Of a stretch of DNA of 64,000 nt, positions 3,376-61,636 are shown one piece after another. The notes under the pieces are model-generated. The model did no database searches. It was not told the origin of the DNA and saw only the letters and a list, made by a program, of their open reading frames with translations. The first letter of the stretch is position 1. The number at the start of each line of letters is the position of its first letter. The translations under genes were made by a program, and so were the position numbers. The stretch is from assembly GCA_022820025.1 (NCBI GenBank), contig JAJEGF010000081.1:48608-112607 (forward strand). The letters are read 5' to 3'. The DNA comes from Chloroflexota bacterium. Its GTDB lineage: Bacteria > Chloroflexota > UBA11872.

Positions 3376-4578
3376 ATGACTGACACGATCGACCGGATCA
3401 CGGTAGCGCCCATTCCCGCCCGCCATTGGACCGAACTGGGGCGCAACGCCTACACGCCGGAAGGCCTCGGCGAGACTCGCACCGAATGGCTCATCCGAGC
3501 CTGTACGACCTCCGGCGCGGAGGGCATCACCAACGCCCGACACACCGTGGCCGCCGAAGGCGGCAGCGTGACCCGCCTGGTCGCCGACCTGCGCGAGGTT
3601 TTTCTGGGCCGCCCGGTCAATTCCCTGCTTCGATTCTCCAACGGCCATGCGGTAGCCGCCGGCTCGGAAGTTCGCCAGGCGCTCTCGTCCTGGGGCTGGA
3701 TGGACATCCTGGCCGTGGACCTCGTATCCCGGAGTCGCGGTCAATCGATTGCCGCGTTGCTTGGCGAACGCCGCCGCGACCGCATTCCGGCCTACGAATC
3801 CACCACCTACTTTCAGGACCTCCTTCATCCCCAGCGCGGCCTGGCCGAGGTCATTGGGCACGCCCGCCGCGGATTCGCACACGGCTTCCGACAGTTCAAG
3901 ATCAAGGTCGGACGCGGCGGTCGAGCCATGACTCCGACGGCCGGACTCCGTCGCGACATCGACGTAGTCCTGGGCATTCGCGACGCGCTCGGCCCGGACG
4001 TCGACCTGATGGTCGACGCAAACTTCGGCTACGACCACCAGCCCGACAACCTTGCCGATTTCATCCGTGAAACAAGCCCGGCCCGCCTCACCTGGCTCGA
4101 AGAAATGATCACCGCCTCCGTCGAGGGCTACCGGACGCTTCGTGAGCTACAAGCCGCCCACTGCCCTGAAACTCTGCTGGTCGCTGGCGAAGTGGACGGC
4201 AATCCGCCCTCGGGCGCCTTCGTGGACCTCATCGAGCAGCAACTCATTGACGGCTATCAGCCCGACATCGTGCGTATTGGGCTCCTGCGCTGGACGCAGT
4301 TGGAAGGCCGATTGGCTGAAAAGTCAATCCTCCCGATCCCGCACAACTTCGGCAACGGCCGCTTCGGCCTGATCGCCGGGCTGGCCCTGGCGACAAGCCT
4401 CGACAGCTGGGTTTCCCTGGAGGACGAGCGCATTCGCCCGAATGTCTACGCCGACGACGAGCTAACGCTGGTCAACGGCGCCTATCGGGCTCCCGATGGC
4501 CCTGGTCTTGGAATCCGGGTCGATGACGACGCCTATGCACGCATCGGCGCTCCCAACGAGGTGGTCATCCGCACATGA
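3376..4578 (+). CDS. Enolase-superfamily enzyme (mandelate racemase/muconate lactonizing enzyme-like, possible sugar-acid dehydratase)
   Basis: ATG at 3376 follows the end of the upstream gene. The longer ORF-track start overlaps the previous CDS. KIKVGRGG...DVDLMVDANFGYD block is typical of the MR/MLE C-terminal barrel. Confidence 0.6.
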   Translation: MTDTIDRITVAPIPARHWTELGRNAYTPEGLGETRTEWLIRACTTSGAEGITNARHTVAAEGGSVTRLVADLREVFLGRPVNSLLRFSNGHAVAAGSEVRQALSSWGWMDILAVDLVSRSRGQSIAALLGERRRDRIPAYESTTYFQDLLHPQRGLAEVIGHARRGFAHGFRQFKIKVGRGGRAMTPTAGLRRDIDVVLGIRDALGPDVDLMVDANFGYDHQPDNLADFIRETSPARLTWLEEMITASVEGYRTLRELQAAHCPETLLVAGEVDGNPPSGAFVDLIEQQLIDGYQPDIVRIGLLRWTQLEGRLAEKSILPIPHNFGNGRFGLIAGLALATSLDSWVSLEDERIRPNVYADDELTLVNGAYRAPDGPGLGIRVDDDAYARIGAPNEVVIRT

Positions 4579-5612
4579 GAATCCTGCTGACTGGTGCAAC
4601 CGGACGCATCGGCGCCAACGTCGGCCGCCGCATGATCGATAACGGTCACAGCGTGCTTGGCTTCACGATGCCCAACGACCCGCAGGCTTCCAAGCTGGCC
4701 GCCATCGGGGCCCACGTCATCACAGGCCATCTTGAGTCCCTCGATGACGTCCGGCGCGCCATGGCCAACGTCGATGCCGTCTTTCACCTTGGCGCCGCAT
4801 TCCAGGCCGGGGGGCCCTTCTCCCCGGAGCAGTACATGCAAATCAACGTTCAGGGAACCTTCAATGTTTTCGAGGCCGCTCGCGAGCGCGCCGGCGCCAT
4901 TCGGCACCTGGTCTTTTCCAGCACGGACGCCACCCTCGACAAGTACCCGCCGCAAGGCAACCCCGAAGTCCTGAACGAGCAATCGCTAACGCAGACGCAG
5001 ACGGACTGGTATGGCTTCACCAAAATTCTTGGCGAGCGCCTGGCCGATCGCTACGTCCGCGCCGACGGCCTGCCCATTACCGTATTCCGCTTCCCCTGGG
5101 TCTGGGGCGCCGGCGAGTTCCTGGACTTCCCCCACTTCCGGCTGTCGTTCTTTCTCGAGTCCTTCCGCGGCCGCAACGATCCGACCGGGAAACAAACCCT
5201 CGCCGCCCTCAAGGCCCTCGATGCCGGCGACGATCCCCTCGTGATCGCGCTTGACGCTAACGGCCGAACCTGGAAAAAGCACACGCTCGACGTCCGCGAC
5301 ATCGTCCAGGCATTCGAGCGGGTCCTCGGCGTACAACAAGCGTTCGGTGGCGTCTACCAGCTTGGAGGGCCCGAACCCTTTACCTGGCGCGACGCCGTTC
5401 CGGTGGTTGCGGAGGCCCTGGACCGCCGCGTCGTCGAGGCGCGCATGGCGGGCATGCCGCCCACCTTTTATGAATTCGACCTCGGGGCGGCGCACCGGGA
5501 CTTTGGCTTCCAGCCCCGGCACCACTGGCGATCGACCCTGGCCGAAGCCGTTCGGTATCGAGAGTCCGGAAGCGACGCCATTATTCCAACGGCCGTTGAG
5601 GGAGATTCCTAG
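4575..5612 (+). CDS. NAD-dependent epimerase/dehydratase (extended SDR)
   Basis: N-terminal Rossmann motif MRILLTGATGRIGANV. ATGA overlap with the upstream gene. Confidence 0.7.
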   Translation: MRILLTGATGRIGANVGRRMIDNGHSVLGFTMPNDPQASKLAAIGAHVITGHLESLDDVRRAMANVDAVFHLGAAFQAGGPFSPEQYMQINVQGTFNVFEAARERAGAIRHLVFSSTDATLDKYPPQGNPEVLNEQSLTQTQTDWYGFTKILGERLADRYVRADGLPITVFRFPWVWGAGEFLDFPHFRLSFFLESFRGRNDPTGKQTLAALKALDAGDDPLVIALDANGRTWKKHTLDVRDIVQAFERVLGVQQAFGGVYQLGGPEPFTWRDAVPVVAEALDRRVVEARMAGMPPTFYEFDLGAAHRDFGFQPRHHWRSTLAEAVRYRESGSDAIIPTAVEGDS

Positions 5613-5619
5613 TCCGTCG

Positions 5620-6996
5620 TTAGGCAGCCACCAGAGCCGCCGCCTCGCGTCCCGCGATCCGCCCATACGCAATGCCCAGGCAGAGTCCGCCTGTGTATCC
5701 CCGCGTGTACAAGCCGCCCACGTCCGCCCCCGCCGCAAAGAGCCCGGGAATCGGCTGTCCCGCCAGGTCCAGGATCTGGGCGCGCTCGTTCGTGCGCGCG
5801 CCCCCGTACGTGAACGTGGCGCCAGGCAGACATCGGATCGCGCGGAATGGTGGGGAGTCCAAGGGCTGTAGCCCACCGCTCCTCGGCACGCTCAGCATCG
5901 ACAGATCGTTCGCCGCGGCTGCCGCGTTGTGTTCATGCAGGGTGTTGATCAGTGGCGCCTTGACCACGCCCCAGCGGCAGAACATCTGGTCCGCCAGCGA
6001 CTCAAGGTCCGGCGCCTCCAGTATTTCGCCGCCCGCATTTCGAATGTTCTCCATCCGGCGATCCACGGCGCCCGGACTCTCACCCATGCCAGTCGCCCGC
6101 AGCTTGCGAACGCGCTCGTCGAAGACTAGAAAGCACAAGGCCTCGGGCTGATGCACCACGGCATGGACCGTCACTTCGTCTCCCAGGAACTCATCGTCGA
6201 ATCGCTGACCGTGAAGATTCACGAACACCGAGAACTGGCTGAAGTCCGGCTTTACGCTCGCAAAATTGTGCACCCCCGTCTCCGCGGGCGGCGCCGGAAT
6301 CATGTGCCCGTAGAACCGACCGAAGGGTCCCGCCGTGCCCGCGCCCGCCTCCAGCGCCGCCAGGAATCCGTCGCCGGTGCTGTACGCGTTGCCGCGCACG
6401 ATCACGTGATGCGCCCAGCGGCCAAAGTACCGGGCGCGCAGGTCGGGGCTCGCCTGGAATCCCCCCGTCGCCAGCACCACCGCTCCGGCCGAAACCTCCA
6501 CCGTCCGCCCGCCGCCGCGCGCTTCCGCGCCGGACACACCGCCGTCTCGCCCGATGCGAAGCGACCGCAGCCCGGTACTCGTCAGAATCGTCCCGCCCGC
6601 GGCCTCCACACTCGCCGCCAGGTCATTCATGAACGTCCGCGAGTCAGGTCGGAACGCGTGTACGTACCGTGCGAACTTATACGGCGTCGGATCCAACTGT
6701 TCTTCGATCTGCAGACCCAACGACTCGTACCAGGCCACACCTTCCAGGTAGTTCTCAACCAGGGCCTGGCCCATGGCTGCATCGCCGCCGGGCTGCACGC
6801 TCAACCATGCGTCCACATTCGCCGCCGTCCAGGCCGCCCCACCGGAGACGGCCGCCGACCCGCCGATTTCAGGCGCCTTCTCGAGTACGAGCACCGATGC
6901 GCCTTGTTCCAACGCGGTCCGAGCTGCCGTTAATCCGCCGATGCCGGCGCCGGCCACCACCACGTCCGCTTGCAGGTGATCGAATGCTTCCTTCAT
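5620..6996 (-). CDS. FAD-dependent oxidoreductase (fumarate reductase / 3-ketosteroid dehydrogenase flavoprotein-like)
   Basis: N-terminal dinucleotide-binding motif VVVAGAGIGGLTAA...VLVLEK. 458 aa. Confidence 0.65.
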   Translation of the reverse strand: MKEAFDHLQADVVVAGAGIGGLTAARTALEQGASVLVLEKAPEIGGSAAVSGGAAWTAANVDAWLSVQPGGDAAMGQALVENYLEGVAWYESLGLQIEEQLDPTPYKFARYVHAFRPDSRTFMNDLAASVEAAGGTILTSTGLRSLRIGRDGGVSGAEARGGGRTVEVSAGAVVLATGGFQASPDLRARYFGRWAHHVIVRGNAYSTGDGFLAALEAGAGTAGPFGRFYGHMIPAPPAETGVHNFASVKPDFSQFSVFVNLHGQRFDDEFLGDEVTVHAVVHQPEALCFLVFDERVRKLRATGMGESPGAVDRRMENIRNAGGEILEAPDLESLADQMFCRWGVVKAPLINTLHEHNAAAAANDLSMLSVPRSGGLQPLDSPPFRAIRCLPGATFTYGGARTNERAQILDLAGQPIPGLFAAGADVGGLYTRGYTGGLCLGIAYGRIAGREAAALVAA

Positions 6997-7124
6997 TTGC
7001 CCAATCTCGCGAAGTCGCGCGCTGGCGCCAAGCCTACGGACGCTACGTCGCTGCCGTCACCTGGGCGACGGCCTTCGGCCGGGTATCGTGCTCCTGCGCC
7101 GAAAACCGCTTGCGGTGAATCGCA

Positions 7125-7505
7125 ATGACTGACTCAGCCGCCTCGCCGGCCGAACCGCGCATCGTCCACCTTGGCCAGGGCATCGCCGAGCGTTCCGACT
7201 GGGGAACCATCGAGTGGCTCGCCAACCGCCGCCTCACGCCCGGCTCCGAAATGACGTTCGGCCACGTGCGCCTCGAACCGGGTGCGTCCAACCCCCGCCA
7301 CCTCCACCCCAACTGTCATGAACTGCTATTCGTGGTCGAAGGCGCCATCGATCACGAACTCAGCGGCGTCACGGTCCGCCTCGAGGCAGGTGACCTTCTC
7401 CACATCCCGATCGGCGCGCCCCACCAGGCCCACAATAGCGACGACCGGCCCTGCGTGGTTGTCGTCACCTACTCAACGGAAGACCGTCAGACTCTGCCCG
7501 CCTGA
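7125..7505 (+). CDS. Cupin-domain protein
   Basis: 126 aa. His-containing cupin motifs (RHLHPNCHELLFVVEG ... HIPIGAPHQAHN). Confidence 0.55.
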   Translation: MTDSAASPAEPRIVHLGQGIAERSDWGTIEWLANRRLTPGSEMTFGHVRLEPGASNPRHLHPNCHELLFVVEGAIDHELSGVTVRLEAGDLLHIPIGAPHQAHNSDDRPCVVVVTYSTEDRQTLPA

Positions 7506-7532
7506 TTGCTCGACAAGTTTGGCGCCAGCCGT

Positions 7533-8519
7533 CTACGGCCAGATCCCGGTCTCCTGGTACCACGCCACCGAGTCAACCAGAGTCTCCTGCACCGGACGAA
7601 CGCGAAACCCAAGCTCGGCTACGGCCCGCGCGTTCGAGAAGTACAGGTATCGGGACCCAACGGCCACCTCGTCCGGCGTCGCCGGCGGCTTCCATCCCAG
7701 CCACAGCCCCGGAGGTTCCAGCAAGGCGGCCAGAACACGCAAGCCGCCCGACGGCAATCCAACCCGCGGCGCGCGCGACTCCAGAACCGCCGCCCCCAGA
7801 TCGGAAAGCTGGGCGTACGTAAGGTTATGCCCCGTCAACAGGTATCGACGCCCGCGCACGCCTCGCTTGGCCAGCCTCACCAGTCCCTCGGCCACGTCTC
7901 GCACATCGACGACGTTTACGCCGCCGGCCGGCGCACACCTGACCCGCCCCCTGATCAGCGGCCCCAGCATTTGCTCGGCGTGCCGACCGTGATCCCACGG
8001 ACCCAGCACCGTCCCCGGGCTGGCGATCGTCACCGGCAGTCCGCGATTCGCGGCCTCCAGGGCCAGCCGCTCGCCGGCCCGCTTGTGCTCGGCATACATC
8101 AAGCGCGCGGACGCCGGCTGCACGTCCGCGTCTTCATCCATCACGTCGTCCGGCCTGTCCGCCAGGCCAACCGCGGCGAGCGAACTCACGTGCACCACGC
8201 GGACCGTACCGGTACTTGCCGCCCAATCCACCAGGTGACGCACCCCATCCACGTTGACCGCACGCTGCGTCGCTTCGTCCCCGCGCCAGAACGACTGATC
8301 GGCCGCCAGGTGAAAAATCCAGTCAAAGCGTGCATCGGGAAACGTGGCGGCATCGGTCACATTGCCTGTGATCCGCGACACCGGCACGCCGTCGAAGGCG
8401 GCATCCGCCCACGGATCGCACGGCAACACCAGCGCTGTCACCGCATGTCCGTCCTCCGTCAGGCGCCGGATCAGTCCCGAACCGATCTGCCCCGACGCGC
8501 CCGTCACGAAGCAGCGCAC
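7533..8519 (-). CDS. NAD-dependent epimerase/dehydratase (SDR)
   Basis: N-terminus RCFVTGASGQIGSGLIRRL. GTG start. Confidence 0.65.
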   Translation of the reverse strand: MRCFVTGASGQIGSGLIRRLTEDGHAVTALVLPCDPWADAAFDGVPVSRITGNVTDAATFPDARFDWIFHLAADQSFWRGDEATQRAVNVDGVRHLVDWAASTGTVRVVHVSSLAAVGLADRPDDVMDEDADVQPASARLMYAEHKRAGERLALEAANRGLPVTIASPGTVLGPWDHGRHAEQMLGPLIRGRVRCAPAGGVNVVDVRDVAEGLVRLAKRGVRGRRYLLTGHNLTYAQLSDLGAAVLESRAPRVGLPSGGLRVLAALLEPPGLWLGWKPPATPDEVAVGSRYLYFSNARAVAELGFRVRPVQETLVDSVAWYQETGIWP

Positions 8520-37489: not shown

Positions 37490-37645
37490 TTTCCCTCTCC
37501 AAGGAGACCCTTCCGTAACCCGATGGACCGGTGTGTGGTGACAATCCCTTCGAGGAGCCGCCATTCTTTCCCCTCTCCAAGGGGAGAGACAGATTCGGGC
37601 GTCCTCGGCCGAAATCGGTGAGGGGTCTTCCGGTCGAGGCCCCTG
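37490..37645 (+). repeat. Conserved intergenic element, copy 1 (about 150 nt; 3' 80 nt about 90% identical to copy 2)
   Basis: GAGCCGCCATTCTTTCCCCTCTCCAAGGGGAGAGACAGATTCGGGCGTCCTCGGCCGAAATCGGTGAGGGGTCTTCCGG aligns with 41757-41837. Contains hairpin CTCTCC-NNGG-GGAGAG whose loop varies while the stem is preserved. Confidence 0.55.
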
Positions 37646-41699: not shown

Positions 41700-41850
41700 T
41701 CCCCGTGGAAACCTTTGCGTAACCCGAGAGGCGAATGCGCGGTTTCAGTCCATTCGCGGAGCCGCCGTTCCTTCCCCTCTCCTGGGGGAGAGGCAGATTC
41801 GGCCGTCTTCGGCCGAAATCGGTGAGGGGTCTTCCGGGCAACCACCTGTC
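41700..41850 (+). repeat. Conserved intergenic element, copy 2
   Basis: See copy 1. Located between the Rieske gene start and the amidohydrolase gene end. Confidence 0.55.
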
Positions 41851-51043: not shown

Positions 51044-52428
51044 GCCGTACGACGGCTCGCTATTTCAGGGACCGGAATCTCGGCTTCCAGTGCCGCTCGT
51101 GATTTGGACGCTTCGCGGACATCAGGGGTGGCGTAGCTGGTACGAGCCTCGATCCGACCCTGCCGATCGTGGATAACCACCTCCGACCGGCTGCCGATCG
51201 CGATTTCTCGCGCGGCGGAAATCGCGTCCGCCTGCGTTGGGTGTGTCGATGTTGGCCTTCGAACGCCGATGCTCTTGACCGCCCACCGGCCCAGATACGG
51301 GACGACGTGCTGGGTCTTTCGAGACGCCTCGCGTCCTTCCTCAAACTCTGCAGCGCTCGGGCCTCGCAATTCATCCCCGACTTCACGCAGCGAGCGCCGC
51401 AACAGCTCAGCACCTCGGAAGGGTGCGAACAGCTGCTCGCCCAGCCCGCGCCAGACTAGGTCCTCAAACCGTTGCGGCTTCTCGAAGGCGCCCAGGCCCT
51501 CGTTTTGGGCGATCGGATCTGGCTCCCGCTCGCGCCATGCCCGCAAACAGCCGCGAAACGCACGATCGAGAGCTGCCGCCGAGACAACCCCGACCTCGCG
51601 CAACCGGGTAAGCATCACCGACGCCGAGACGCCATACATAAGTTTCAGGCGGACCAGTTCGCCATAAGTAAACCCATGCCGGTTGCTCCCCGCCTGCGCT
51701 CGCAGGTGCTCTTCGGGGACTAGAAAAGCCTGAGCGAATCGGTCAATCGTCTTGTCACGCCGAAGGTGCGAGTCGGCAACTGAATGGACTGCGCGCTCCG
51801 CCAGCTCGCGGGCCAGGGTCAGGCGACGGCTTTCGATCCGGGCCCTGCTGGAGACCACGATGGCTTCGGTATCTGGCCGAGATCCAGCCAGCTTGACGGT
51901 GCAGACGAGACCATCGAAACGTGCGGGCAGGTCGACTTCGATCAACTTAATGCCCTTGGATTCCAGCAGGCCGGTCATGCTGGGGATCGGACCCGAGCCG
52001 AGATTCCAGTCCCGGCGCAGTCGGTTCGCCAGCCCCTCGGCGTCCTCCAGGCTTCGGATATGAACGGGGCCCAGACTGCCGAACGGGTCAGGCGCCGGCT
52101 CTAGGTCCAGGATGTTCTCGATGGCCAGGTAGCTCTCAAGCTGCTCGGTGATCAGAACCTCGGCGCGGGCGCGGTCCTTGGCCGACGTACCTGGGTGCCG
52201 GCGGAACTCGACCGCCTCCAGCCCCTCCACCTGGCCTCCAAATAGGAAGTCCAACGACACGTCGAGCGCCTGGCCCAGACCGACCAGCACTCGCGAACTC
52301 GGCATCATCTTGCCGGCCTCGTACTTGCTGATCGCCTGCACCGAAACCGACGGCGACATGCGCATGGCAAGCTCGCGCATGGACAATCCCGCCTTCTTCC
52401 GCGCCAACCGCAGCCGCTGCCCGAACAC
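51040..52428 (-). CDS. Three-domain protein: XRE-family HTH, degenerate ImmA/IrrE-like (COG2856) domain lacking HEXXH, and C-terminal DUF2188
   Basis: HTH: RLRLARKKAGLSMRELA...SVQAISKYEAG. Middle: TLARELAERAVH aligns to the ImmA (F/L)TLAHELGH zinc site, but His-Glu are replaced. C-terminus: HVVPYLGRWAVKSIG...EVVIHDRQGRIEARTSY, a DUF2188 signature. Confidence 0.55.
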   Translation of the reverse strand: MFGQRLRLARKKAGLSMRELAMRMSPSVSVQAISKYEAGKMMPSSRVLVGLGQALDVSLDFLFGGQVEGLEAVEFRRHPGTSAKDRARAEVLITEQLESYLAIENILDLEPAPDPFGSLGPVHIRSLEDAEGLANRLRRDWNLGSGPIPSMTGLLESKGIKLIEVDLPARFDGLVCTVKLAGSRPDTEAIVVSSRARIESRRLTLARELAERAVHSVADSHLRRDKTIDRFAQAFLVPEEHLRAQAGSNRHGFTYGELVRLKLMYGVSASVMLTRLREVGVVSAAALDRAFRGCLRAWREREPDPIAQNEGLGAFEKPQRFEDLVWRGLGEQLFAPFRGAELLRRSLREVGDELRGPSAAEFEEGREASRKTQHVVPYLGRWAVKSIGVRRPTSTHPTQADAISAAREIAIGSRSEVVIHDRQGRIEARTSYATPDVREASKSRAALEAEIPVPEIASRRTA

Positions 52429-52458
52429 CCCGTCCTCCCCCCGCCCTCAGTGGTTGAC

Positions 52459-52474
52459 GATTACTCTTGTAATC
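52459..52474. promoter_or_regulatory. Perfect palindrome GATTACTCTTGTAATC upstream of the XRE-fusion gene (candidate operator)
   Basis: Lies 31 nt upstream of the GTG start at 52428, in a locally AT-richer stretch. Confidence 0.35.
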
Positions 52475-52931
52475 CGTGGAATTCTACCAAGGGTTGATAA
52501 CTGACCGCGTCCGGCTCGATCTGATCAGGCCAGCGTTGAGTCGTAGGCCTTGGCAGATCGCCACCGCTGACCAATCAGAGCGCGGTCGGCAACACAGGCA
52601 AGAGTGCGCTTGCATGCGCCTACTGCAACGCAATCACCCCGCCCCCTCCGGGTCGTATGAAAGCCGCTCCGCCGTCATCACCGCCCACCAGTCCGGCGAC
52701 TCGATAGCCATCGCCGGTCAGCTAGTCCAAGACTTCGACCAGGACTCAAGCGGCAGCTGATCGTCCGAGGCAGACGACGCGGCCAAATCGTGAATCTAGC
52801 CATCAGCCGCAGAGTCGTTCGATCGGCATCCCCAGCCGCGAAATCAAGCACTGTCTGGGGCGGCCGGGGTGAGCCGTGAGCCCAGTGGCGATAGGAGTAT
52901 CCTGAACAGGCGTGATCGGGGAGGCGCTCGA

Positions 52932-53165
52932 ATGCCAAAGGTGCTCCAACAGAAGACAACGGTGCTGCCAGGTGGCAGGGTTGAAATTGTCAGCCCGGAG
53001 TTGCAGGAGGGCCTGACCGTGGATGTGGTGGTGCTGCATGAGCCCAAAGCAAGCGACCGCTCCGTCATGGACATTCTCAACAGTGGGCCAGAGCGCCGTC
53101 TGTTCCAGACAGCGGAAGAGGTGCGGGCCTACTTGGCGCAAGAAAAGGCATCGTGGGACCGCTGA
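52932..53165 (+). CDS. Putative antitoxin of a VapBC pair
   Basis: 77-aa protein upstream of, and overlapping, the PIN gene. ATG at 52932. Confidence 0.45.
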   Translation: MPKVLQQKTTVLPGGRVEIVSPELQEGLTVDVVVLHEPKASDRSVMDILNSGPERRLFQTAEEVRAYLAQEKASWDR

Positions 53166-53608
53166 CCCTGCCTCTCAGTGGCTTGGTCTATCTCGATGCC
53201 AGCGGCCTCATCTATACCGTGGAGCGCATAGAGCCGTACCGCACGCTGCTGGAACCCATGTGGCAGCAAGCGCAGGACGGAAACCTCACCCTCGTGAGCA
53301 GCCCCGTCCTTCTGGTCGAGGTGCTTGTAAAGCCTTTGCAAGATGGCAACACCGAGATCGAAATGCAGTACCGCGAGCTATTTGGGTCCAATGTGGTGCG
53401 ACTGCTCGACGCCGCATACTCGGTGTTTGAGGACGCCGCCCATCTACGCGCCGAGACGGGCCTGAAGACCCCCGACGCCCTCCACGCCGCGACGGCTCTG
53501 CAAGCTGACAGCACCTGCTTTGTGACGAACGACACCGACTTCCGCCGCGTCCCAGGCTTGCCTGTCGTCGTATTGGACGACCTCCTCAAAGCGGAAAGCC
53601 AAGCATGA
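53153..53608 (+). CDS. PIN-domain ribonuclease toxin (VapC-like)
   Basis: LDASGLIY ... DALHAATA ... FVTNDTDF acidic-residue pattern of PIN. Start uncertain (GTG 53153 or TTG about 53186). Confidence 0.65.
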   Translation: MGPLTLPLSGLVYLDASGLIYTVERIEPYRTLLEPMWQQAQDGNLTLVSSPVLLVEVLVKPLQDGNTEIEMQYRELFGSNVVRLLDAAYSVFEDAAHLRAETGLKTPDALHAATALQADSTCFVTNDTDFRRVPGLPVVVLDDLLKAESQA

Positions 53609-53884
53609 GTCTGGCAATGGATGGCAGAGTTGCCCTTATCCGGAGGAGGGTGCCAACGGACCAGACTGAGGACATCGTCAGTGCCTGATGCAATCATCGC
53701 GGAGTTGTGGCGAATCAAGGACGCCATGGCGTGCGAGCACGGGTACGACGTCAGAGTGATGGCCGCCTACCTTCGCGACAAGGAACAATCGCGCCGGTCG
53801 AGCCAGGCCAGCACCCGCGGCTCCGGGTTCGTGTGCATCAGTTCCGAAACGACGCTGGTGTCGAGAACGATCATGGTCGAAGCC

Positions 53885-54130
53885 TCAATCAAACTTCATC
53901 GGGTCGCGCATCGGCTCATGTGGAGGAATGTCCAGGTCCACGCCGCCTAGCGGCTTGAACATTTCGTGAATGGTCGTTCCCAGGTTGCGCACCGGCGCCG
54001 CGTCCCGGCTCAGCGCTTCCCGCAGAATCTCGCGAGCCTCCTGCTCCATCGAACGGCCATGCTCGGCCGCCCGAATTCGCAGCCGCCGCTTTAAGTCCTC
54101 GTCCAGGTTGCGCACCGTAATGCTCGCCAT
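53885..54130 (-). CDS. Ribbon-helix-helix antitoxin (FitA/VapB 'plasmid stability protein' family), apparently orphan
   Basis: MASITVRNLDEDLKRRLRIRAAEHGRSMEQEAREILREAL is the canonical N-terminus of this family. GGAGG SD. No PIN gene downstream on the same strand. Confidence 0.65.
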   Translation of the reverse strand: MASITVRNLDEDLKRRLRIRAAEHGRSMEQEAREILREALSRDAAPVRNLGTTIHEMFKPLGGVDLDIPPHEPMRDPMKFD

Positions 54131-54159
54131 GTCTCAGCCTCCGTCGGCAGTGCCGCCTT

Positions 54160-54232
54160 GCACTGCATTGACCGCAATGCACGCAACGCTGCGTAACTCG
54201 GCAATGATCGCAATGCAATCATTGCTGCAAAT
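54160..54232. promoter_or_regulatory. Array of GCAATG/CATTGC palindromes upstream of the RHH antitoxin gene (candidate operator)
   Basis: TGCATTG-accg-CAATGCA (54164-54181) and GCAATGAT-cgcaatgca-ATCATTGC (54204-54228). Confidence 0.4.
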
Positions 54233-54258
54233 CCCAGCGACCCCACAGCCTCCGACCG

Positions 54259-56217
54259 CTACGCGGCCGCCTCCGGATCGTGATAGAACCGCTCCGCCGT
54301 CAATACCGCCTCCCAGTCCGGCGGCCTGAACGCTTCTTCACCCGTTCGCCGCGCCGCCTGCACCAATTCGCCGACGTGGTGCAGCGCCGCCAGCTTGCGG
54401 TCGTGGTTGCGGTCGCGGTCCGCTCGTAGCTCGTCCAGTTCTCGGCTTGTCGCCATGTCCAGTCCTTTCAAAATCCAATCGGCGTATCGGTAGCCCTCGG
54501 CCCGGAACTTCCCGCGCGAGGCCCGCCCCGTGTTGTAATCCGCCAGCGCCTCGCGGTAGTCCCCGCCCCGATGGGCGATGTGCGACGCCATCAGGTTCGC
54601 CGCGTACTCCAGCGAGGCGAACGGGTCGAACGTCCGCCCCCGCATCGACGGATGCCAGCGCGGGATGATCTGCGCAATCCCCTCCGCCCCCGCCCGGCTC
54701 ACCGCCGTCGGGTTCCAGCCCGACTCCATCACGATCTGCCGCCGGAACACCTGCGTGTCGTAGCCCACCGCCCGCGCATATCCATCCGCGAACAGCTCCA
54801 GCGGGTTCACCCGCTCGCCCGAAACCCGAAACGTCTCCGGATCGATCCGCCCGCCCGGCGTCGCGTCCAGGTGCAGGTGATGCCCCGTGCTATTCCCCGT
54901 CGAGTCGCACAACCCCAGCGTCTCCCCCGGTTCGACGGCATCGCCCACCGCCAGGCTCGGAGGTTCGTCAAAGTGCAGGAACCGCCACAGCACCCCCTCC
55001 GCATCTCGCAACGCCACCGCGTTCCCATACGGAAACCCATCCCGCACCCCCGGATCCCGCGTACTCGGCCGCTCCGTCGACCACACCGCCGCCACCACCC
55101 CCGCCCCCGGCGCCCTCACCGGCCGCCGATACACCGACCCCACCGCCACCGCCAAATCCAGCCCCCCATGCCGGTAGCTGCCGCGGTCCACGCCGAAGAC
55201 CGAGGTGACCCGGATCGTGCCGTCCAGCGGCGACGCCAGCGCTTGCGGCACGGGCGCAGGCTCGGGTGTCGGCGTCGGCGTCGCACGCCCCATCGGCAAC
55301 GCCATCGCCGTCGTCAGGTCGCGCTCGAGCTCAGAGTGGGCCGCCGGCGCGAAGTCATGCCAGTGGCCGCCGCGCTCCTGGCCCACGAACCAGCACAGCG
55401 CCTGTGCTTGAGGAAGGGCCTCGGCCACCACGGAAGCCGCGTCCTGCAGCCAGCCCGCGTGATAGTTGACCGCGGGCCGGTGCGGCGGGTCCGTACCTCG
55501 CGCCGCCGTGTTGAATTCGGTAATCCAGACGGGCAGATGATCCAGGCCGAGCGCGGCGTGATTTTCGGCCCAGGTCTCCGCTACGTTCAGCCCGAAACGC
55601 CAGCCCCTCTCGTGGCGGGTCTGCAGGTCGTCGGCCACCGAGAGGCGCGGATTGCCGTACACGTGCACGCTCAGCACATCGGGCGGCCCCGCGATGCGCT
55701 TCCACGCATCCAGGAGCGCGTAGTCGAGATCGGCCCAGGGCGAGCCTTCCGGCGATTGCCCGGCCCTGGCGTGCAATCGGCTGGGGTGGAACGTCGCCAC
55801 CGGAATGCTGGCCAGCCGCGCGTCGGGCAGCGCCTGCTGGCACTGCGCGATGAAGGCCCGCAACGCGCCCTCGACCAGGCGCCAGCCACGCGCGCCCTCC
55901 AGCTGCGGCTCATTGCCCGGTTGCAGAATCAGCCGCCCGCCCAGGTGACGCAGCCGGCTCAACTCCCGGAGAGCGGCGTCATAGGCCGTGCGCTCAGTGT
56001 CCGTGCGTGCATACGCCTGCCCCTGCCGCCAGTCCACCCGCAGCAGGACCTCGCTCGCCGGATGCCGGGTCGCGAGCGCCTCGATCCGCGGCATGGCCTG
56101 GCTCGGGTGGTGCGGATCATCGGGGGCTACGCCCTCCAGGTAGACCAGCTCCACGAACGGGGTGCCGTCGGGATACTGCCGCTCCGGGTCCGGCCAATGC
56201 AGCCCAACGCGCATCAT
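54259..56217 (-). CDS. Three-domain cell-wall hydrolase: N-terminal glycoside-hydrolase-like domain, M23 (LytM) peptidase, C-terminal lytic transglycosylase (SLT)
   Basis: M23: GGLDLAVAVGSV...GHHLHLD. SLT: ESGWNPTAVSRAGAEGIAQIIP. N-terminal domain with WITEFN. Confidence 0.65.
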   Translation of the reverse strand: MMRVGLHWPDPERQYPDGTPFVELVYLEGVAPDDPHHPSQAMPRIEALATRHPASEVLLRVDWRQGQAYARTDTERTAYDAALRELSRLRHLGGRLILQPGNEPQLEGARGWRLVEGALRAFIAQCQQALPDARLASIPVATFHPSRLHARAGQSPEGSPWADLDYALLDAWKRIAGPPDVLSVHVYGNPRLSVADDLQTRHERGWRFGLNVAETWAENHAALGLDHLPVWITEFNTAARGTDPPHRPAVNYHAGWLQDAASVVAEALPQAQALCWFVGQERGGHWHDFAPAAHSELERDLTTAMALPMGRATPTPTPEPAPVPQALASPLDGTIRVTSVFGVDRGSYRHGGLDLAVAVGSVYRRPVRAPGAGVVAAVWSTERPSTRDPGVRDGFPYGNAVALRDAEGVLWRFLHFDEPPSLAVGDAVEPGETLGLCDSTGNSTGHHLHLDATPGGRIDPETFRVSGERVNPLELFADGYARAVGYDTQVFRRQIVMESGWNPTAVSRAGAEGIAQIIPRWHPSMRGRTFDPFASLEYAANLMASHIAHRGGDYREALADYNTGRASRGKFRAEGYRYADWILKGLDMATSRELDELRADRDRNHDRKLAALHHVGELVQAARRTGEEAFRPPDWEAVLTAERFYHDPEAAA

Positions 56218-56474: not shown

Positions 56475-56816
56475 GTGGTCTCCTTTGGCCTCGTCGGATT
56501 CCAGCCCCCGCCGCCCTGCCGAAGACCCGAGTGTTGCCTTCCTGTGTACACCCACTGTACACTCATCGTAGACGGTTCGCAAACCTTCGGATACTCCACA
56601 TGCCCAGCCTCGCCCGCCGCCCGCTGCGTCCAGCCCGACTCGCCGCCCGCAGACCCTCGCGTCACGCGTTGGGCGTGGCCGCTCATGGCGCCCCGGAAGC
56701 CTGCCCTCAAGCGCCCAAAAGCACCCCGCCGCGCCTCAAGAGTTTTTTGGAAACGGAATTAGTCACTCCTGGCTTAGCGTGCTACAATAGGGCAGTTGAG
56801 CAGACAGGGGCGACAC

Positions 56817-57695
56817 ATGGATCTCATCCGAATCTTCCAGCGATTCCCGAGCAACGAAGCGTGCATCGCGCACCTGGAATCGGTTCGCTGGGGCGATGAG
56901 CCCGCGTGCCCGCACTGCGGCTCGAAGCACATTGGCCGCAAGTCGGACGGCATCGGCCGCTGGAATTGCCACGACTGCCACGCCAGTTTCACGGTCCTCT
57001 CGGGAACCATTTTCAGTAACACGCGAACCGATCTCCCGAAGTGGTTCTTGGCGATCTCCCTCGTATTGAACGCGAAGAAGTCCATATCGAGTCCGCAGTT
57101 GGGGCGCGACCTGGACATCCCGCAGAAGACCGCCTACCGGATGCTCATGAAAATCCGGTCGGCGATGGTGGCGGACCTGGACCTGTTCACCGGCATCGTG
57201 GAAGCCGATGAATGCTACGTCGGCGGCAAGCCGCGCAAGCGCAACCGGCGCGACGATGACGACAACTACCCGCAGGCGCCGCGTGGCCGCGCGACGCGCA
57301 AGCTCCCAATCGTGGGAGTTGTCGAGCGGGGCGGGAAGGTGGCCGCCGAACCATCCCCGCGCGTCACCACGGCGAATCTGTCGGCATTCCTGAGCCGCCA
57401 CGTGGACCGTGACGCGGCACTGCTGATTACGGACCAGTTCCCCGCCTACCGGCGCATCGGCCACACCATGCGCCACGCGACGGTTGACCACGCGGCCCGC
57501 TACGTGGACGGCGAAGTCCACGTCAACACGCTCGAAGGATTCTGGGCACTGTTGAAGCGAGCATGGTGGGGCGCGCATCACCACTACTCGAAGCGCCACG
57601 CGCACGCCTACGTGACGGAAGCCTGCTACAAGTACAACGTGCGCGAGTCCGCCAACCCGTTCAGCGCGTTCCTGCGGGATGCGGTCGCCGCCTAG
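56817..57695 (+). CDS. IS1595-family (ISXO2-like) transposase
   Basis: N-terminal FPSNEACIAHLESVRWGDEPACPHCGS zinc-ribbon and the DDE-like body typical of the family. Confidence 0.75.
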   Translation: MDLIRIFQRFPSNEACIAHLESVRWGDEPACPHCGSKHIGRKSDGIGRWNCHDCHASFTVLSGTIFSNTRTDLPKWFLAISLVLNAKKSISSPQLGRDLDIPQKTAYRMLMKIRSAMVADLDLFTGIVEADECYVGGKPRKRNRRDDDDNYPQAPRGRATRKLPIVGVVERGGKVAAEPSPRVTTANLSAFLSRHVDRDAALLITDQFPAYRRIGHTMRHATVDHAARYVDGEVHVNTLEGFWALLKRAWWGAHHHYSKRHAHAYVTEACYKYNVRESANPFSAFLRDAVAA

Positions 57696-57734
57696 CCGTA
57701 TGATGCGCGGGCGCGCCCGCAGCGAGCGTTGCCC

Positions 57735-59243
57735 ATGCCCTGGCTCAACAAGCTCTACTTTGGCGATTGCTTCACCATCACGCGCGAGCACCTACGCAAT
57801 GCCAGCGTGGACCTGATCTACCTGGACCCGCCGTTCAACTCGCAGCGCCAGTACAACTCGATCTACAAAGACGAAACCGGCCGGCCGCTCCCGGACCAGA
57901 CGGACGCCTTCTGCGATATGTGGGAACTGGACCCCGAGACTGAGCGCAGCATCCGCGCCGCGCCTATCCTGATGCGCGACCACGGGCTCGACGATGCAAC
58001 GGTCCAGCTTTGGCAACAGTGGATGCGCGCGCTGCGCCATACAAACCCGCGCCTGCTCGCGTACCTGGCCTATATGTCGCTGAGGCTCCTGGACTTTCAC
58101 CGCGTGCTCAAGCCGACCGGCTCGCTCTACTTGCACTGTGACCCGACCGCTAGCCACTACATCAAAGTGCTCTTGGACGCGATATTCGGCCACGCCAGCT
58201 TTAGGAACGAGATTGTCTGGTGCTACACCGGCCCATCGAATACGCGCCGCTGGTTCCCGCGCAAGCATGACGTTGTGCTCTTCTACGCTCGCACGCAACA
58301 GGCGTACTTCAATCGTGACGCGGTGCGAATCCCCTACAGCGACGAAACGCTCGCGCGCCGCGGCCGCATTGAAGGCAAGCGCAGCTATATCGCGCCTTCA
58401 GTCGAAACGCAGGAACGGCGAACAGACGTTCAGGTCGATAAGCGATTCGGGCAGGGCAAAGTACCGGAGGATTGGTGGTCTGACATCCCGATCCTGACGA
58501 ATCAGCGTGAGCGCCTGGGCTACGCGACACAGAAGCCGCTGGCGCTGCTGGACCGGATTATCGAAGCTTCCTGCCCGCCGGACGGCGTGGTCTTGGATCC
58601 GTTCTGCGGTTGCGCGACCACGCTGGAAGCCGCGCACAACCTGGGCCGCCGTTGGATCGGCATAGACATCGCCATCCACGCTATCCGGCGCGTGGCCAGC
58701 GTGCGGCTCAAAGACCGCTGCGGACTGGTTGAAGGGGAGGATTACACCATCCAGGGCGTGCCCAGCACGCTTGAAGGGGCGCAGCTCCTCCACGAACAAG
58801 ACCCGTACCAATTCCAGCGATGGGCGGTCGCCGAAGTCGAGGGCTTTGTCACGTCGAAGCAAACGGCGGACGGCGGGATTGACGGACGGCTCTACTTCGA
58901 CGTGCCTAGCGAGCCGGACTTGCAAAGCATGGTGCTGGAAGTGAAGGGCGGGGCGCACGTGCGGATTACGGACCTACGCGCACTGCGAGCGGTCCTAGAC
59001 GACGACCTGGCCCTGATGGCCGGACTCATCATCATGGAGCCGCGCAGTCCGCACCAAACGCGCAACTTCGAGCGGTACATGGCGCAGGCGGGCGTGCTGG
59101 AAGTGCTGGGGCGGGAATACCCGCGGATGCAAATGCTCACGGTGCCCGAGATCCTGGACGGGAAGCGGTTCGACACGCCAACGGTGGCGGGCGTGCATAT
59201 CCCACAGCCGGTCCTCCCAGGCATTCAACGCGCCGAAGCCTAG
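57735..59243 (+). CDS. DNA methyltransferase (N6-adenine/N4-cytosine class, DPPFN motif) fused to a C-terminal Mrr-cat/PD-(D/E)xK nuclease-like domain
   Basis: DLIYLDPPFNSQRQYN (motif IV). C-terminal DGGIDGRLY ... EVKGG resembling the Mrr catalytic core. Stop codon lies inside the right IR. Confidence 0.6.
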   Translation: MPWLNKLYFGDCFTITREHLRNASVDLIYLDPPFNSQRQYNSIYKDETGRPLPDQTDAFCDMWELDPETERSIRAAPILMRDHGLDDATVQLWQQWMRALRHTNPRLLAYLAYMSLRLLDFHRVLKPTGSLYLHCDPTASHYIKVLLDAIFGHASFRNEIVWCYTGPSNTRRWFPRKHDVVLFYARTQQAYFNRDAVRIPYSDETLARRGRIEGKRSYIAPSVETQERRTDVQVDKRFGQGKVPEDWWSDIPILTNQRERLGYATQKPLALLDRIIEASCPPDGVVLDPFCGCATTLEAAHNLGRRWIGIDIAIHAIRRVASVRLKDRCGLVEGEDYTIQGVPSTLEGAQLLHEQDPYQFQRWAVAEVEGFVTSKQTADGGIDGRLYFDVPSEPDLQSMVLEVKGGAHVRITDLRALRAVLDDDLALMAGLIIMEPRSPHQTRNFERYMAQAGVLEVLGREYPRMQMLTVPEILDGKRFDTPTVAGVHIPQPVLPGIQRAEA

Positions 59244-59380
59244 CACGCTAAGCCAGGAGTGACTAATTCCGTTTGGAAAAAACTCTTATCGCGCACGCGA
59301 GGCCCCAATTCCCCCCGCCTCAGCGCCTACACTCACACCCCAGGCAACGTCCCGATTCGCCGCCTGGAGGCCTCGGCCAC

Positions 59381-61636
59381 ATGAACCTCGTCGGCTACAC
59401 CGACCGCCTCACCGCCGCCCCCGGCGACACCGTCCGCTTCATGGTCAGCAGCCACTACCCGCGCTACCGCGCCGACCTCGTTCGCCTCATCCACGGCGAC
59501 GAGTCCCCCGCCGGCCCCGGCTTCAAGGAGCGCCACGTCCCCTCCCCCATCAACGCCCACTACCCCGGCCGCTCCAAGCCCATCCACAGCGGCTCCTACG
59601 TCCACATCCCCGCCCACCCCGCCCTCGACACCCTCACCAGCTTCACCCTCACCGCCTGGACCTACCCCACGACCCCCGCCAACGGCCTCCAGGGCCTCAT
59701 CACCCGCTGGACCGGCGACCAGGGCTTCGCCCTCGTCATCGGACCCGATGGCGACCTCTCCCTCCACCTCGCCGACGGCCGCAACCCACCCGTTCACGCC
59801 GCCACCGGCGCCCCCCTCACCGAGCGTGTCTGGACTTTCGTCGGCGCCAGCTACCACGCCCCCACCGGCCGCGTCACCCTAATCCAGCAACCCCTCCGCC
59901 GCTGGCCCATCGCCCCCGACCAAGCCCTCGTCACCCACGACACCCCCGCCGCCAACATCCAGCCAGCCGCGGACACCCCGCTCCTCTTCGCCGCCCTCAC
60001 CGCCGGCCCACCCCAACGCACCGGCCCCATCGCCGCCCCCTACAACGGCAAGCTCGACTCCCCCCACCTCCACGACCGCGCCCTCTCCCCCGTCGAATTG
60101 ACGGCTCTGGCCGACCCCACCACCGACGAACCTTCAGGTGACCCGCTGGCCGCCTGGGACTTCAGCCTCGACATCGGCAGCTACCGCGCCACCGACACCG
60201 GTCCCCACGGCCTCCACGGCCAGGCAGTCAACATGCCCACCCGCGGCGTCACCGGCCGCAACTTCACTGGCGCCGAAACCAACTTCAACCGCGCCCCCCA
60301 CGAATACGGCGCCATCCACTTCCACGACGACGACGTGGAGGACGTGGCCTGGGAGTCCGACTTCCAGCTCACCATCCCGCCCGACCTACCCAGCGGCGTC
60401 TACGCCGCCCGCCTGCGCGCCGGCGACGACGAGGACTACCTTCCCTTCTGCGTCCGCCCACCGCGCGGCACCGCCACCTCTCGCATCGCCGTCCTCATGC
60501 CCACCCTCACCTACGTCGTCTACGCCAACTTCCGCGACATCGACGGCGGCTTCTGGGACAAGGAACGCGTTCCCAACGCCGACCCCACCCTGCACGAACC
60601 CGAGTTCGCCTACATCCGCGCCAACGGACTCCCCGGCCTCTATGAGCGTCACTCCGACGGTTCCGGCACCACCCACGTCTCCCACTTGCGCCCCATCCTC
60701 AACATGCGGCCCAAGTTCCGCTACCGGGTCTGGGCCGCCCCCTCCCGTTTCCCTGCGGACCTCTACCTCATCGACTGGCTTGAAGCCACCGACCAACAGT
60801 TCGACGTCATCACCGACCACGATCTGCACGCCGAAGGCGCCAACCTGCTGGACCCCTACAACGTCATCCTCACCGGCTCCCACCCCGAGTACTGGACCTC
60901 CGAAATGCTGGCCGGCATGCGTACCTACCTCGGCCAGGGCGGGCGCCTGATGTATCTCGGCGGCAACGGCTTCTTCGGCGTCACCACCATCGACCCCGAG
61001 CGCCCCCACATCGCCGAGGTCCGCCGCTGGGGCACCAGCTGGCCCTTCGAGATGCCGCCCGCCGAACGCATCCACAGCACCACCGGCGAGCCCGGCGGCA
61101 CCTGGCGCAACCGCGGCGCCCCGCCAAACGGCCTCGTAGGCATCGGCTCCTGCGCGGCCGGCTTTGACCAGGGAGCACCCTATGCCCTTCAGCCCGACAG
61201 CTTCGCTCCCCGCGCCGCCTTCGTTTTCAAGGACATCGGCGACGACGAGCTCATCGGCGACTGCCCCTCCCTCGTCGTCCGCCACGGCGCCGCCGGCTAC
61301 GAGATGGATCGCCTCGACTTCAGCCTCGGCACCCCGCCCCACGCTCTGTTGCTGGCCTCATCCGTCGGCCATTCCGAGCGCTACGCGACGTTCGCCGACG
61401 AACGCCTTGAATTCACCCAGGGCAAGGACGGCATGGCGACCGACGCCCCGCCCCCGGCAGATGGCCCCCACGCCTTTGTCCGCGCCGACATGGTCTACTT
61501 CGAAACCCCAAACAACGGCGCTGTCTTCTCCGTCGGCTCCATCGCCTGGCGCGGCTGCCTCTCTCACAACAACTACGACAACACCGTCTCCCGCGTCACC
61601 GCCAACGTCCTCCGTCGCTTCGCCGCCGACCAATGA
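59381..61636 (+). CDS. N,N-dimethylformamidase large-subunit-like protein (DmfA2 family)
   Basis: N-terminus MNLVGYTDRLTAAPGDTVRFMVSS...LVRLIHGDESPAGPGFKE typical of the family. ATG at 59381, downstream of the IS right end. Confidence 0.5.
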   Translation: MNLVGYTDRLTAAPGDTVRFMVSSHYPRYRADLVRLIHGDESPAGPGFKERHVPSPINAHYPGRSKPIHSGSYVHIPAHPALDTLTSFTLTAWTYPTTPANGLQGLITRWTGDQGFALVIGPDGDLSLHLADGRNPPVHAATGAPLTERVWTFVGASYHAPTGRVTLIQQPLRRWPIAPDQALVTHDTPAANIQPAADTPLLFAALTAGPPQRTGPIAAPYNGKLDSPHLHDRALSPVELTALADPTTDEPSGDPLAAWDFSLDIGSYRATDTGPHGLHGQAVNMPTRGVTGRNFTGAETNFNRAPHEYGAIHFHDDDVEDVAWESDFQLTIPPDLPSGVYAARLRAGDDEDYLPFCVRPPRGTATSRIAVLMPTLTYVVYANFRDIDGGFWDKERVPNADPTLHEPEFAYIRANGLPGLYERHSDGSGTTHVSHLRPILNMRPKFRYRVWAAPSRFPADLYLIDWLEATDQQFDVITDHDLHAEGANLLDPYNVILTGSHPEYWTSEMLAGMRTYLGQGGRLMYLGGNGFFGVTTIDPERPHIAEVRRWGTSWPFEMPPAERIHSTTGEPGGTWRNRGAPPNGLVGIGSCAAGFDQGAPYALQPDSFAPRAAFVFKDIGDDELIGDCPSLVVRHGAAGYEMDRLDFSLGTPPHALLLASSVGHSERYATFADERLEFTQGKDGMATDAPPPADGPHAFVRADMVYFETPNNGAVFSVGSIAWRGCLSHNNYDNTVSRVTANVLRRFAADQ

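Follow-up and report, generated by a model that had tools for sequence, protein, structure and literature searches.

A transporter insertion sequence of the IS1595 family with a methyltransferase and nuclease-fold fusion as its passenger in a Chloroflexota genome

A stretch of 64,000 nucleotides from a Chloroflexota contig, JAJEGF010000081.1 (the window), contains a transposase gene followed by the gene of a DNA methyltransferase with a nuclease-like C-terminus, and long inverted repeats enclose both. The locus raises the questions of where the mobile element ends, whether the methyltransferase gene belongs to it and what the encoded protein may do. Comparison with related loci indicates that window positions 56754-59271 form an intact 2,518-bp insertion sequence (IS) of the IS1595 family, of the type that carries a passenger gene (transporter IS, tIS), and that it is probably transposition-competent. 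The passenger is a fusion of a beta-class methyltransferase and a domain with an Mrr-type PD-(D/E)xK fold, and the same pair of genes recurs in many phyla.

Boundaries of the element and its target site

The ends of the element are defined by terminal inverted repeats (IRs; left IRL, right IRR) that match perfectly over 31/31 positions, and by a target-site duplication (TSD) of 8 bp that adjoins them on either side:

56746-56753, no strand: left TSD copy, 8 bp, TTTGGAAA; the identical 8-mer lies at 59272-59279
56754-56784, plus strand: IRL, 31 bp, CGGAATTAGTCACTCCTGGCTTAGCGTGCTA; reverse complement of 59241-59271 without mismatch
59241-59271, minus strand: IRR, 31 bp; the TAG stop of the methyltransferase gene makes up the 3 nt on its inner side
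59272-59279, no strand: right TSD copy, 8 bp, TTTGGAAA; a single copy is present in the empty site L102

A preliminary description of the locus had placed the ends at near-perfect 47-bp terminal repeats with two mismatches. The repeat exists, since the 47-nt arms 56738-56784 and 59241-59287 pair with 2 mismatches (a central GG where CC is expected), and its 33-nt core is found at only these two sites in the window, with 0 expected by chance; but only the inner 31 nt of each arm are part of the element, as is evident from locus L102. This is an orthologous empty site, in which both window flanks are contiguous around one copy of the 8-mer; each of its sides aligns to the window (87-90% identity), the overlap of these alignments is the 8-mer and nothing more, and the site already holds AAGAGTTTTTTAGAAAAAACTCTT. 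Each 47-nt arm is thus composed of the 31-bp IR, the 8-bp TSD and 8 bp of a pre-existing palindromic target, and the outer 8 nt (AAGAGTTT on the left, AAACTCTT on the right) are the remaining halves of the palindrome that was there before insertion. The two arm mismatches are the non-palindromic centre of the TSD, because the central dinucleotides are repeated directly and not inverted (GG/GG in the window, AG/AG in L005), in register with the duplication of L008. In L008, which has a transposase 87% identical to that of the window, the outer 16 nt are absent and a direct repeat, TGGGGAGA, abuts termini starting CGCATTTAGTCA, and L005 has TTTAGAAA on both sides in the same register as the window TSD.

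We also considered that the 47-bp imperfect repeats could be the true ends of an element spanning 56738-59287 that has no recognisable TSD, as the pairing of the arms with so few mismatches and the 49/49 complementary arms of L003 might suggest. The empty site with AAGAGTTTTTTAGAAAAAACTCTT already refutes this, and we give it practically no credence; the palindrome is found uninterrupted in 17 other places, the central dinucleotides of both the window and L005 are direct, and L008 together with eight more distant relatives lacks the outer 16 nt, their TSDs abutting CG[GC]A ends. The perfect 49-nt arms of L003 fit an inversion between two copies whose target repeats face opposite ways.

The CG[GC]A... 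termini are kept across the clade, with homologous IRs in L003, L005, L006 and L008 and in more distant relatives, and perfect 8-bp TSDs were found in eight relatives. Besides L008, these are L012 (ATATATAA), L014 (ATTCGATG), L015 (AAGAATTA), L016 (AAAAATAA), L017 (ATTTTCTT), L022 (TTCACTTT) and L113 (AAGATCAA), in each of which the duplication adjoins CG[GC]A... ends. An IR search gave no repeat above threshold in L112 and L114, a clean TSD was not callable in L011, and a search of the window returned no other copy of the IR or of the target palindrome. The IS1595 family makes 8-bp direct repeats (PMC5704250), and an element at 56754-59271 with 31-bp IRs and an 8-bp TSD therefore fits this family. 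Its GC content is 61-65%, that of the flanks 70-73%. The perfect IRs and the intact TSD point to a recent or still active insertion.

The host sequence into which the element inserted is itself repeated, and two parts of it border the element:

56717-56745, no strand: left part of the host target, ending in AAGAGTTT; outside the IS, a flank shared with uninterrupted copies
59280-59315, no strand: right part of the host target repeat, AAACTCTT atcgcgcacgcgaggccccaattcc...; outside the IS

Metagenome contigs were scanned for AAGAGTTTTTTNNAAAAAACTCTT, and 21 stretches were returned. GC-rich contigs from a single assembly (LXNI01) account for seventeen of the matches, each with window-like flanks of ~25-30 nt on both sides, and the left flank (…caccccgccgcacctcAAGAGTTT) is found in these 17 uninterrupted copies and also beside the L005 copy of the element. 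The target, a directional intergenic repeat ~75-80 nt in length, reads ...gaaa(a/t)gcaccccgccgcacctc AAGAGTTTTTT(G/A)GAAAAAACTCTT a(c/t)gcgcgcgaa..ccccatttc and is present in at least 17 uninterrupted copies in LXNI01 in both orientations (within loci L090-L109; for example L107 6153-6176), and in L105 two copies lie 174 bp apart (3429-3452 and 3603-3626). No Rfam match was found for it; a repeat resembling repetitive extragenic palindromes (REP) or miniature inverted-repeat transposable elements (MITE), and an operator-like palindrome upstream of genes, are both candidates for its nature. The IS has entered the AT-rich palindromic centre of this repeated element, in a genome of ~70% GC, with duplication of 8 bp, and in this lineage insertion into the AT-rich centre of the one repeated intergenic element has occurred repeatedly.

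Locus L003 is the exception among the copies, as its two ends carry TTTCCAAA and TTTGGAAA. On its left it is flanked by the target repeat turned the other way round, which is also the exact point where synteny with the window is lost; this end pattern is the one expected after inversion between two inverted copies. The element and everything rightwards of it are shared between the window and L003 at 84% identity, the left flanks are unrelated, and the genes in them differ, with UvrD/HAD genes in one against a Peptidase_M23/SLT gene in the other. Comparison of L003 3104-3152 and its left flank with the window leftwards of 56738 suggests an IS-mediated inversion within one lineage. L102 is empty though it is closer to both the window and L003, which would mean either independent insertions into a hot spot or precise loss.

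Some further features of the surroundings were observed. A second repeat of ~75 nt with two short hairpins (CCCCTCTCC..GGGGAGAGG and ATTCGGCCG..CGGCCGAAAT) occurs at window positions 37559-37632 and 41771-41840 and, at ~90% identity, in metagenome contigs L092 and L108; an Rfam scan of the whole window returned two tRNA-Ser genes and nothing else. To the left of the window copy (about 51700-56217; L001 1-4740) lie a PIN/FitA-like toxin-antitoxin pair, an HTH_3-Peptidase_M78-DUF2188 protein and a 652-aa Peptidase_M23+SLT protein, and in L112 (1-2815) an MmeI-type Type IIG gene is found beside the element copy, so that the genes near these copies look like a defence or mobile neighbourhood.

The two genes and the exchange of the recognition segment

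Within the IRs, the two genes and their main features are arranged on one strand as follows:

56760-56788, plus strand: sigma-70-like promoter with extended -10 (TAGTCA, 17-nt spacer, TG-c-TACAAT), almost wholly inside IRL
56817-57695, plus strand: IS1595-family transposase, 292 aa, by Pfam and NCBIfam matches
57735-59243, plus strand: gene of the 502-aa cargo protein, a beta-class DNA methyltransferase whose C-terminal part is an Mrr-type nuclease-fold domain, by Pfam and fold
58152-58533, plus strand: variable central segment of the methyltransferase, from motif IV to the S-adenosylmethionine (AdoMet) motif I, where nucleotide identity to L005 and L006 drops
58767-59159, plus strand: Mrr-type PD-(D/E)xK domain, approximately residues 345-475, by fold and motif

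The transposase matches the Pfam families DDE_Tnp_IS1595 (PF12762, 1.8e-30) and Zn_ribbon_IS1595 (PF12760, 4.3e-11) as well as NCBIfam transpos_IS1595 (NF033547, 1.8e-48) over model positions 1-215 of 215. An N-terminal zinc ribbon of the form CxxC...CxxC is contributed by C31-C34 and C51-C54, and D131, D206, E240 and K247 make up the D, D, E(x6)K signature. Taken with the IRs and the 8-bp TSD, these matches bear out the earlier assignment of an ISXO2-like, IS1595-like transposase inside the repeats. The promoter in IRL reads into the transposase gene and is the only promoter-like site predicted in 56600-59450; its sequence, TGCTACAAT, is kept in L003, L005, L006 and L008. No terminator-like site was found between the transposase and methyltransferase genes in a search of the same region, and the IRL promoter thus reads into a two-gene unit, transposase first and methyltransferase-nuclease fusion second, that has no internal terminator. 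Several relatives show a 4-nt overlap between these genes.

The cargo protein matches Pfam N6_N4_Mtase (4.8e-43) over residues 25-318, with DPPFN at residues 31-35, in keeping with the N6/N4 methyltransferase of roughly 500 aa described before. The three innermost nucleotides of IRR are the TAG stop of its gene (59241-59243), and the whole unit of transposase, methyltransferase and IRs recurs elsewhere; the gene is integral to the element, as had been proposed. The order of motifs is that of the beta class, with DPPF (31-34) preceding DPFCGCATT (288-296, AdoMet motif I) and a variable region (~165-255) between them. The nearest solved relatives of residues ~1-320 are the N6-adenine enzymes M.BceJIV, M.RsrI, M.MboIIA and CcrM (phmmer 5e-27 to 1e-13; Foldseek 6.5e-19 to 3e-15). 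Because of the DPPF motif and of these relatives, the cargo probably methylates adenine at N6.

Beta-class enzymes carry their target-recognition domain between catalytic motif IV and AdoMet motif I, and it is there that otherwise near-identical elements differ. Nucleotide identity between the window and L005/L006 is 42-65% in 58152-58533 and 78-79% in 57952-58051, against 91-100% elsewhere, and among the near-identical elements the transposase is 98-99% and the C-terminal domain 97-98% identical, compared with 58-71% for the N-terminal part of the methyltransferase. A metagenome-assembled genome of Dehalococcoidia contains two copies, L009 and L022, ~180 kb apart on contig CBDDQX010000001.1, that are 84-100% identical save for a methyltransferase segment of ~400 nt at 45-54%. 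The aligned sequences indicate that recognition-domain cassettes have been exchanged between otherwise near-identical elements, including copies within one genome. Allelic diversity of the recognition domain of Type IIG enzymes has been reported by Furuta et al. 2010 (PMC2853133).

Spread of the pair and of the solitary fusion

The unit of transposase, methyltransferase and IRs was found in differing gene contexts in L003, L005, L006 and L008, with at least five contexts among the close relatives; relatives are annotated as Chloroflexota/Dehalococcoidia. The element has therefore moved among and within genomes as one unit, and its supposed mobility is borne out by IR-flanked copies in unrelated contexts and by their 8-bp TSDs; IRs that flank no other copies would have spoken against the preliminary description, and this is not what the relatives show. 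A scan of species-representative genomes with an alignment of 46 methyltransferase sequences gave 80 loci. At every scanned locus with a methyltransferase at least 44% identical and an intact upstream region, an IS1595 transposase lies directly upstream on the same strand, and the same holds for three more distant methyltransferase relatives; L013 and L020 are rearranged upstream and their transposase match is displaced or fragmentary. Altogether the pair was found at a minimum of 20 loci in many phyla, its hosts including Dehalococcoidia, Kaistiaceae, Vicinamibacterales, Rhodospirillales, Poribacteria, Cytophagia and others, and the methyltransferase lies downstream in all of three further transposase relatives (63-74% identity).

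Over 15 loci, transposase and C-terminal domain co-vary in how similar they are to their window counterparts (r = 0.99, with identities from 99/97% to 32/27%), and the transposase and the methyltransferase-nuclease have long evolved as one unit. At ~60 of the 80 loci (35-42% identity), by contrast with the IS-borne clade, the fusion of methyltransferase and C-terminal domain stands without a transposase. Clustering of the neighbouring open reading frames over the 80 loci gave no recurrent partner or restriction gene besides the transposase; the cargo gene therefore works alone, and the fusion is an old, solitary, single-gene family, found also on plasmids, of which one clade is borne by an IS.

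Individual loci depart from the common pattern. L039 of Fimbriimonadales (AP024673.1) has tandem paralogs of the solitary fusion (4714-6309 and 6807-8369) without a transposase, possibly acting on the two strands of an asymmetric site. The transposase of L014 (4088-5001) is split into two frames, the methyltransferase of L074 (2733-5678) is interrupted by an insertion, and L031 (5001-5888) and L063 of Arenicellales are relatives that lack the C-terminal nuclease-fold domain.

Such a tight linkage, with co-evolution at r = 0.99 and a 4-nt gene overlap in several relatives, might also be taken to mean that the nuclease domain serves transposition itself, for example by second-strand cleavage at the ends, and that the fusion is machinery and not cargo; TnsA of Tn7, a restriction-enzyme-like protein, is a precedent for a nuclease in transposition. 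We regard this as very unlikely. The fusion architecture is solitary, with no transposase nearby, in ~60 of the 80 loci, and the recognition domain varies among elements with identical IRs, for which reason the fusion protein cannot be reading the ends of the element. Moreover, IS1595 elements without such a gene transpose (MTnSag1, tISCpe8; PMC5704250).

The C-terminal domain, its proposed role and known systems

What the cargo does depends on its C-terminal domain, which had been described as resembling the Mrr catalytic core. Fold comparison supports this, as the domain has the alpha-beta-beta-beta-alpha-beta core, and its relatives include AspBHI, LlaBIII, AF1548, FokI and MspJI (tabulated values of 9.2, 9.0, 8.9, 8.4 and 8.1, respectively). 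The DGGIDG...EVK motif corresponds to D379-G384 and E402-K404, with D379 (58869-71), D383 (58881-83), E402 (58938-40) and K404 (58944-46) as putative catalytic residues. Mrr_cat (PF04471) matches 33 of 46 homologs (60-87% identical) at E <= 0.01, with a best value of 5.8e-6. D383, E402 and K404 are invariant in 46 close homologs, and D379, G381, D383, G384, V403, K404 and G406 are invariant in 82 family members, down to ~27% identity; at position 402, the IS-borne clade has E and the others of these 82 sequences have S or Q. The domain is of the Mrr-type PD-(D/E)xK fold, and its nuclease activity is putative.

A second nuclease fold is found in the sister element L113 (3424-5718), which has a transposase 68% identical to that of the window, 23-bp IRs (CGGACTTAGCC...) and the TSD AAGATCAA. 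In its methyltransferase (37% identity) the place of the Mrr-like domain is taken by an HNH nuclease domain (8.3e-14). Because one nuclease fold is here exchanged for another, the comparison argues that nuclease activity would be the function maintained by selection.

In light of these data, we propose that the cargo may be a self-contained restriction-modification-like enzyme, the likeliest of the readings, to which we give about even odds. The beta-class methyltransferase would read a specific unmodified sequence through its central recognition domain and methylate adenine there, and the tethered Mrr/FokI-like PD-(D/E)xK domain would cut DNA with unmethylated sites, as in Type IIC/IIG enzymes. 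The IS would thereby be hard to lose (addiction), useful to the host (defence), or both, and exchange of recognition cassettes between elements would change the specificity.

Since AspBHI, MspJI and Mrr_cat, the closest structural relatives of the domain, come from modification-dependent enzymes, the fusion might instead be a methylation-dependent restriction enzyme of Type IV (Mrr/MspJI-like) or an anti-defence factor, as the preliminary description had suggested as one option. Enzymes of the AspBHI/MspJI type sense the modification with a separate N-terminal reader domain, and the corresponding layout of a modified-DNA reader followed by Mrr_cat was not found here, as residues 1-320 are an intact methyltransferase (DPPF and FxGxG-type motifs) with no other domain, to which the nuclease fold is tethered. 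LlaBIII, FokI, BspD6I and PaqCI, which have the same fold and act on unmodified DNA, score equally well, and cutting the product of its own methylation would be suicidal for such an enzyme. A methylation-dependent role thus appears highly improbable.

The main alternative is that the cargo is a solitary (orphan) DNA methyltransferase only, with the nuclease fold as a DNA-binding accessory; we consider this rather unlikely, although a number of findings speak for it and weigh against restriction activity. The 80 neighbourhoods lack a cognate restriction gene, the plasmid-borne and other members of the family are publicly annotated as plain DNA methyltransferases, and PADLOC returned for the element generic Type II/III/orphan methyltransferase models only, with no match for the transposase or the nuclease domain. 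The window protein's C-terminal domain, isolated as 179 aa, gave no Pfam match at E values up to 10, NA-iREase1, a Pfam family of 'inactive restriction endonuclease' domains, matches 6 of 46 homologs, and most solitary members have S or Q in place of E402. To our knowledge, characterised single-chain Type IIG/IIC enzymes combine an N-terminal nuclease with a gamma-class methyltransferase, and the domain order and methyltransferase class of the cargo correspond to no established restriction-enzyme architecture. CcrM, finally, provides a precedent for an essential, accessory DNA-binding C-terminal domain on a beta-class methyltransferase (PMC6787082). The domain of CcrM is SAND-like, however, and not nuclease-like (PMC6787082). 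Against the orphan methyltransferase also stand the invariance of D379, D383 and K404 in the 82 sequences down to ~27% identity, the canonical E-x-K that the IS-borne clade retains, and L113, where the domain is swapped for an HNH nuclease and not for another DNA-binding fold. Furthermore, Q-x-K is a normal catalytic variant of Mrr/MspJI enzymes, which likewise weighs against an orphan enzyme.

Comparison with known proteins helps to place the restriction-modification-like reading. Like Type IIC/IIG enzymes (MmeI, BpuSI, Eco57I type), the cargo unites a PD-(D/E)xK-type nuclease domain, a methyltransferase and a recognition domain in one protein, has no partner gene and would change specificity by recognition-domain exchange. 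The canonical MmeI/BpuSI-type layout has an N-terminal nuclease, a gamma-class methyltransferase and a C-terminal recognition domain, whereas the cargo has the reverse order, with its nuclease domain at the C-terminus, a beta-class methyltransferase with an internal recognition domain, and cleavage that is putative. Because the domain order and the methyltransferase class differ, the cargo falls outside the Type IIC/IIG family and could at most resemble its enzymes in the way it works, and of the earlier label 'Type IIG-like' the single polypeptide without a partner stands but the canonical layout does not. With the Mrr/MspJI/AspBHI catalytic domain (PF04471) it shares the signature GDxGxDG ... 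(E/Q/S)-V-K-G/S-G, although here the domain is joined to a methyltransferase and not to a reader of modified DNA and the window protein falls below any Pfam reporting level. M.BceJIV, M.RsrI, M.MboIIA and CcrM share the methyltransferase core, but are 250-360 aa long and lack the nuclease-fold domain.

With respect to the element, tIS with passenger genes are described as confined to two families, IS1595 and IS66 (bioRxiv 10.1101/2021.05.26.445724; PMC11891212). The IS1595 tIS ISNha5, MTnSag1 and tISCpe8 resemble the present element in having one DDE transposase that bears a zinc ribbon at its N-terminus, short IRs, an 8-bp TSD and at least one passenger gene, which lies downstream of the transposase gene within the IRs (PMC5704250; PMC11891212; bioRxiv 10.1101/2021.05.26.445724), and here too the passenger gene (57735-59243) lies between the transposase gene and IRR, with its stop inside IRR. 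The passengers of these named elements are a transcription regulator and lincomycin-resistance/mobilisation genes (PMC5704250; PMC11891212), whereas here the passenger is a methyltransferase-nuclease fusion. The cargo had been called unusual for this IS family, which is not the case; passengers are typical of IS1595 (bioRxiv 10.1101/2021.05.26.445724; PMC11891212), and this one accompanies every examined transposase relative down to 45% identity as well as three more distant ones.

The transposon-like restriction-modification units of Furuta et al. 2010 have in common with the element that IRs bracket the restriction-modification genes, that an 8-bp TSD and an empty site in a related genome are found, and that the recognition domains of single-chain enzymes show allelic diversity (PMC2853133). 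Those units have no transposase of their own and their mover was unclear to the authors (PMC2853133), whereas here the transposase is inside the unit and the restriction and modification functions, if both are real, reside in one polypeptide. Furuta et al. 2010 also cite the 2009 IS1595 paper of Siguier, Gagnevin and Chandler among reports of IS-flanked restriction-modification systems and solitary methyltransferase genes (PMC2853133), and for this reason a methylase passenger in the IS1595 family may already be on record. No description of the element or of the clade-wide association was found in literature on IS1595 and passengers of the methyltransferase or methylase kind, a search that did not extend to ISfinder or to the 2009 family paper.

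Taken together, these data allow us to suggest, tentatively and as something possible more than probable, that the clade is a large, phylum-spanning group of IS1595 tIS that would act as self-mobilising, single-gene restriction-modification modules of uncharacterised architecture, a beta-class adenine methyltransferase with a C-terminal Mrr-type or HNH nuclease, swapping cassettes and co-evolving as a selfish unit. For annotation, the analysis provides exact boundaries for an intact IS, and an example of an IR that seems longer than it is, and imperfect, because the duplicated target is AT-rich and near-palindromic; the fusion is also common in its solitary form, where annotation goes no further than "DNA methyltransferase". 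The significance rests not on the single element but on a widespread, co-evolving unit, in which the transposase and the fusion of methyltransferase and nuclease have spread jointly through many phyla, while recognition cassettes and even the nuclease module were swapped. Should the nuclease be inactive, the element would be a vehicle that spreads orphan adenine methylases, of relevance to epigenetic variation and to the evasion of restriction; if it is active, these would be compact mobile restriction-modification units with a new single-chain layout and a potential source of new specificities.

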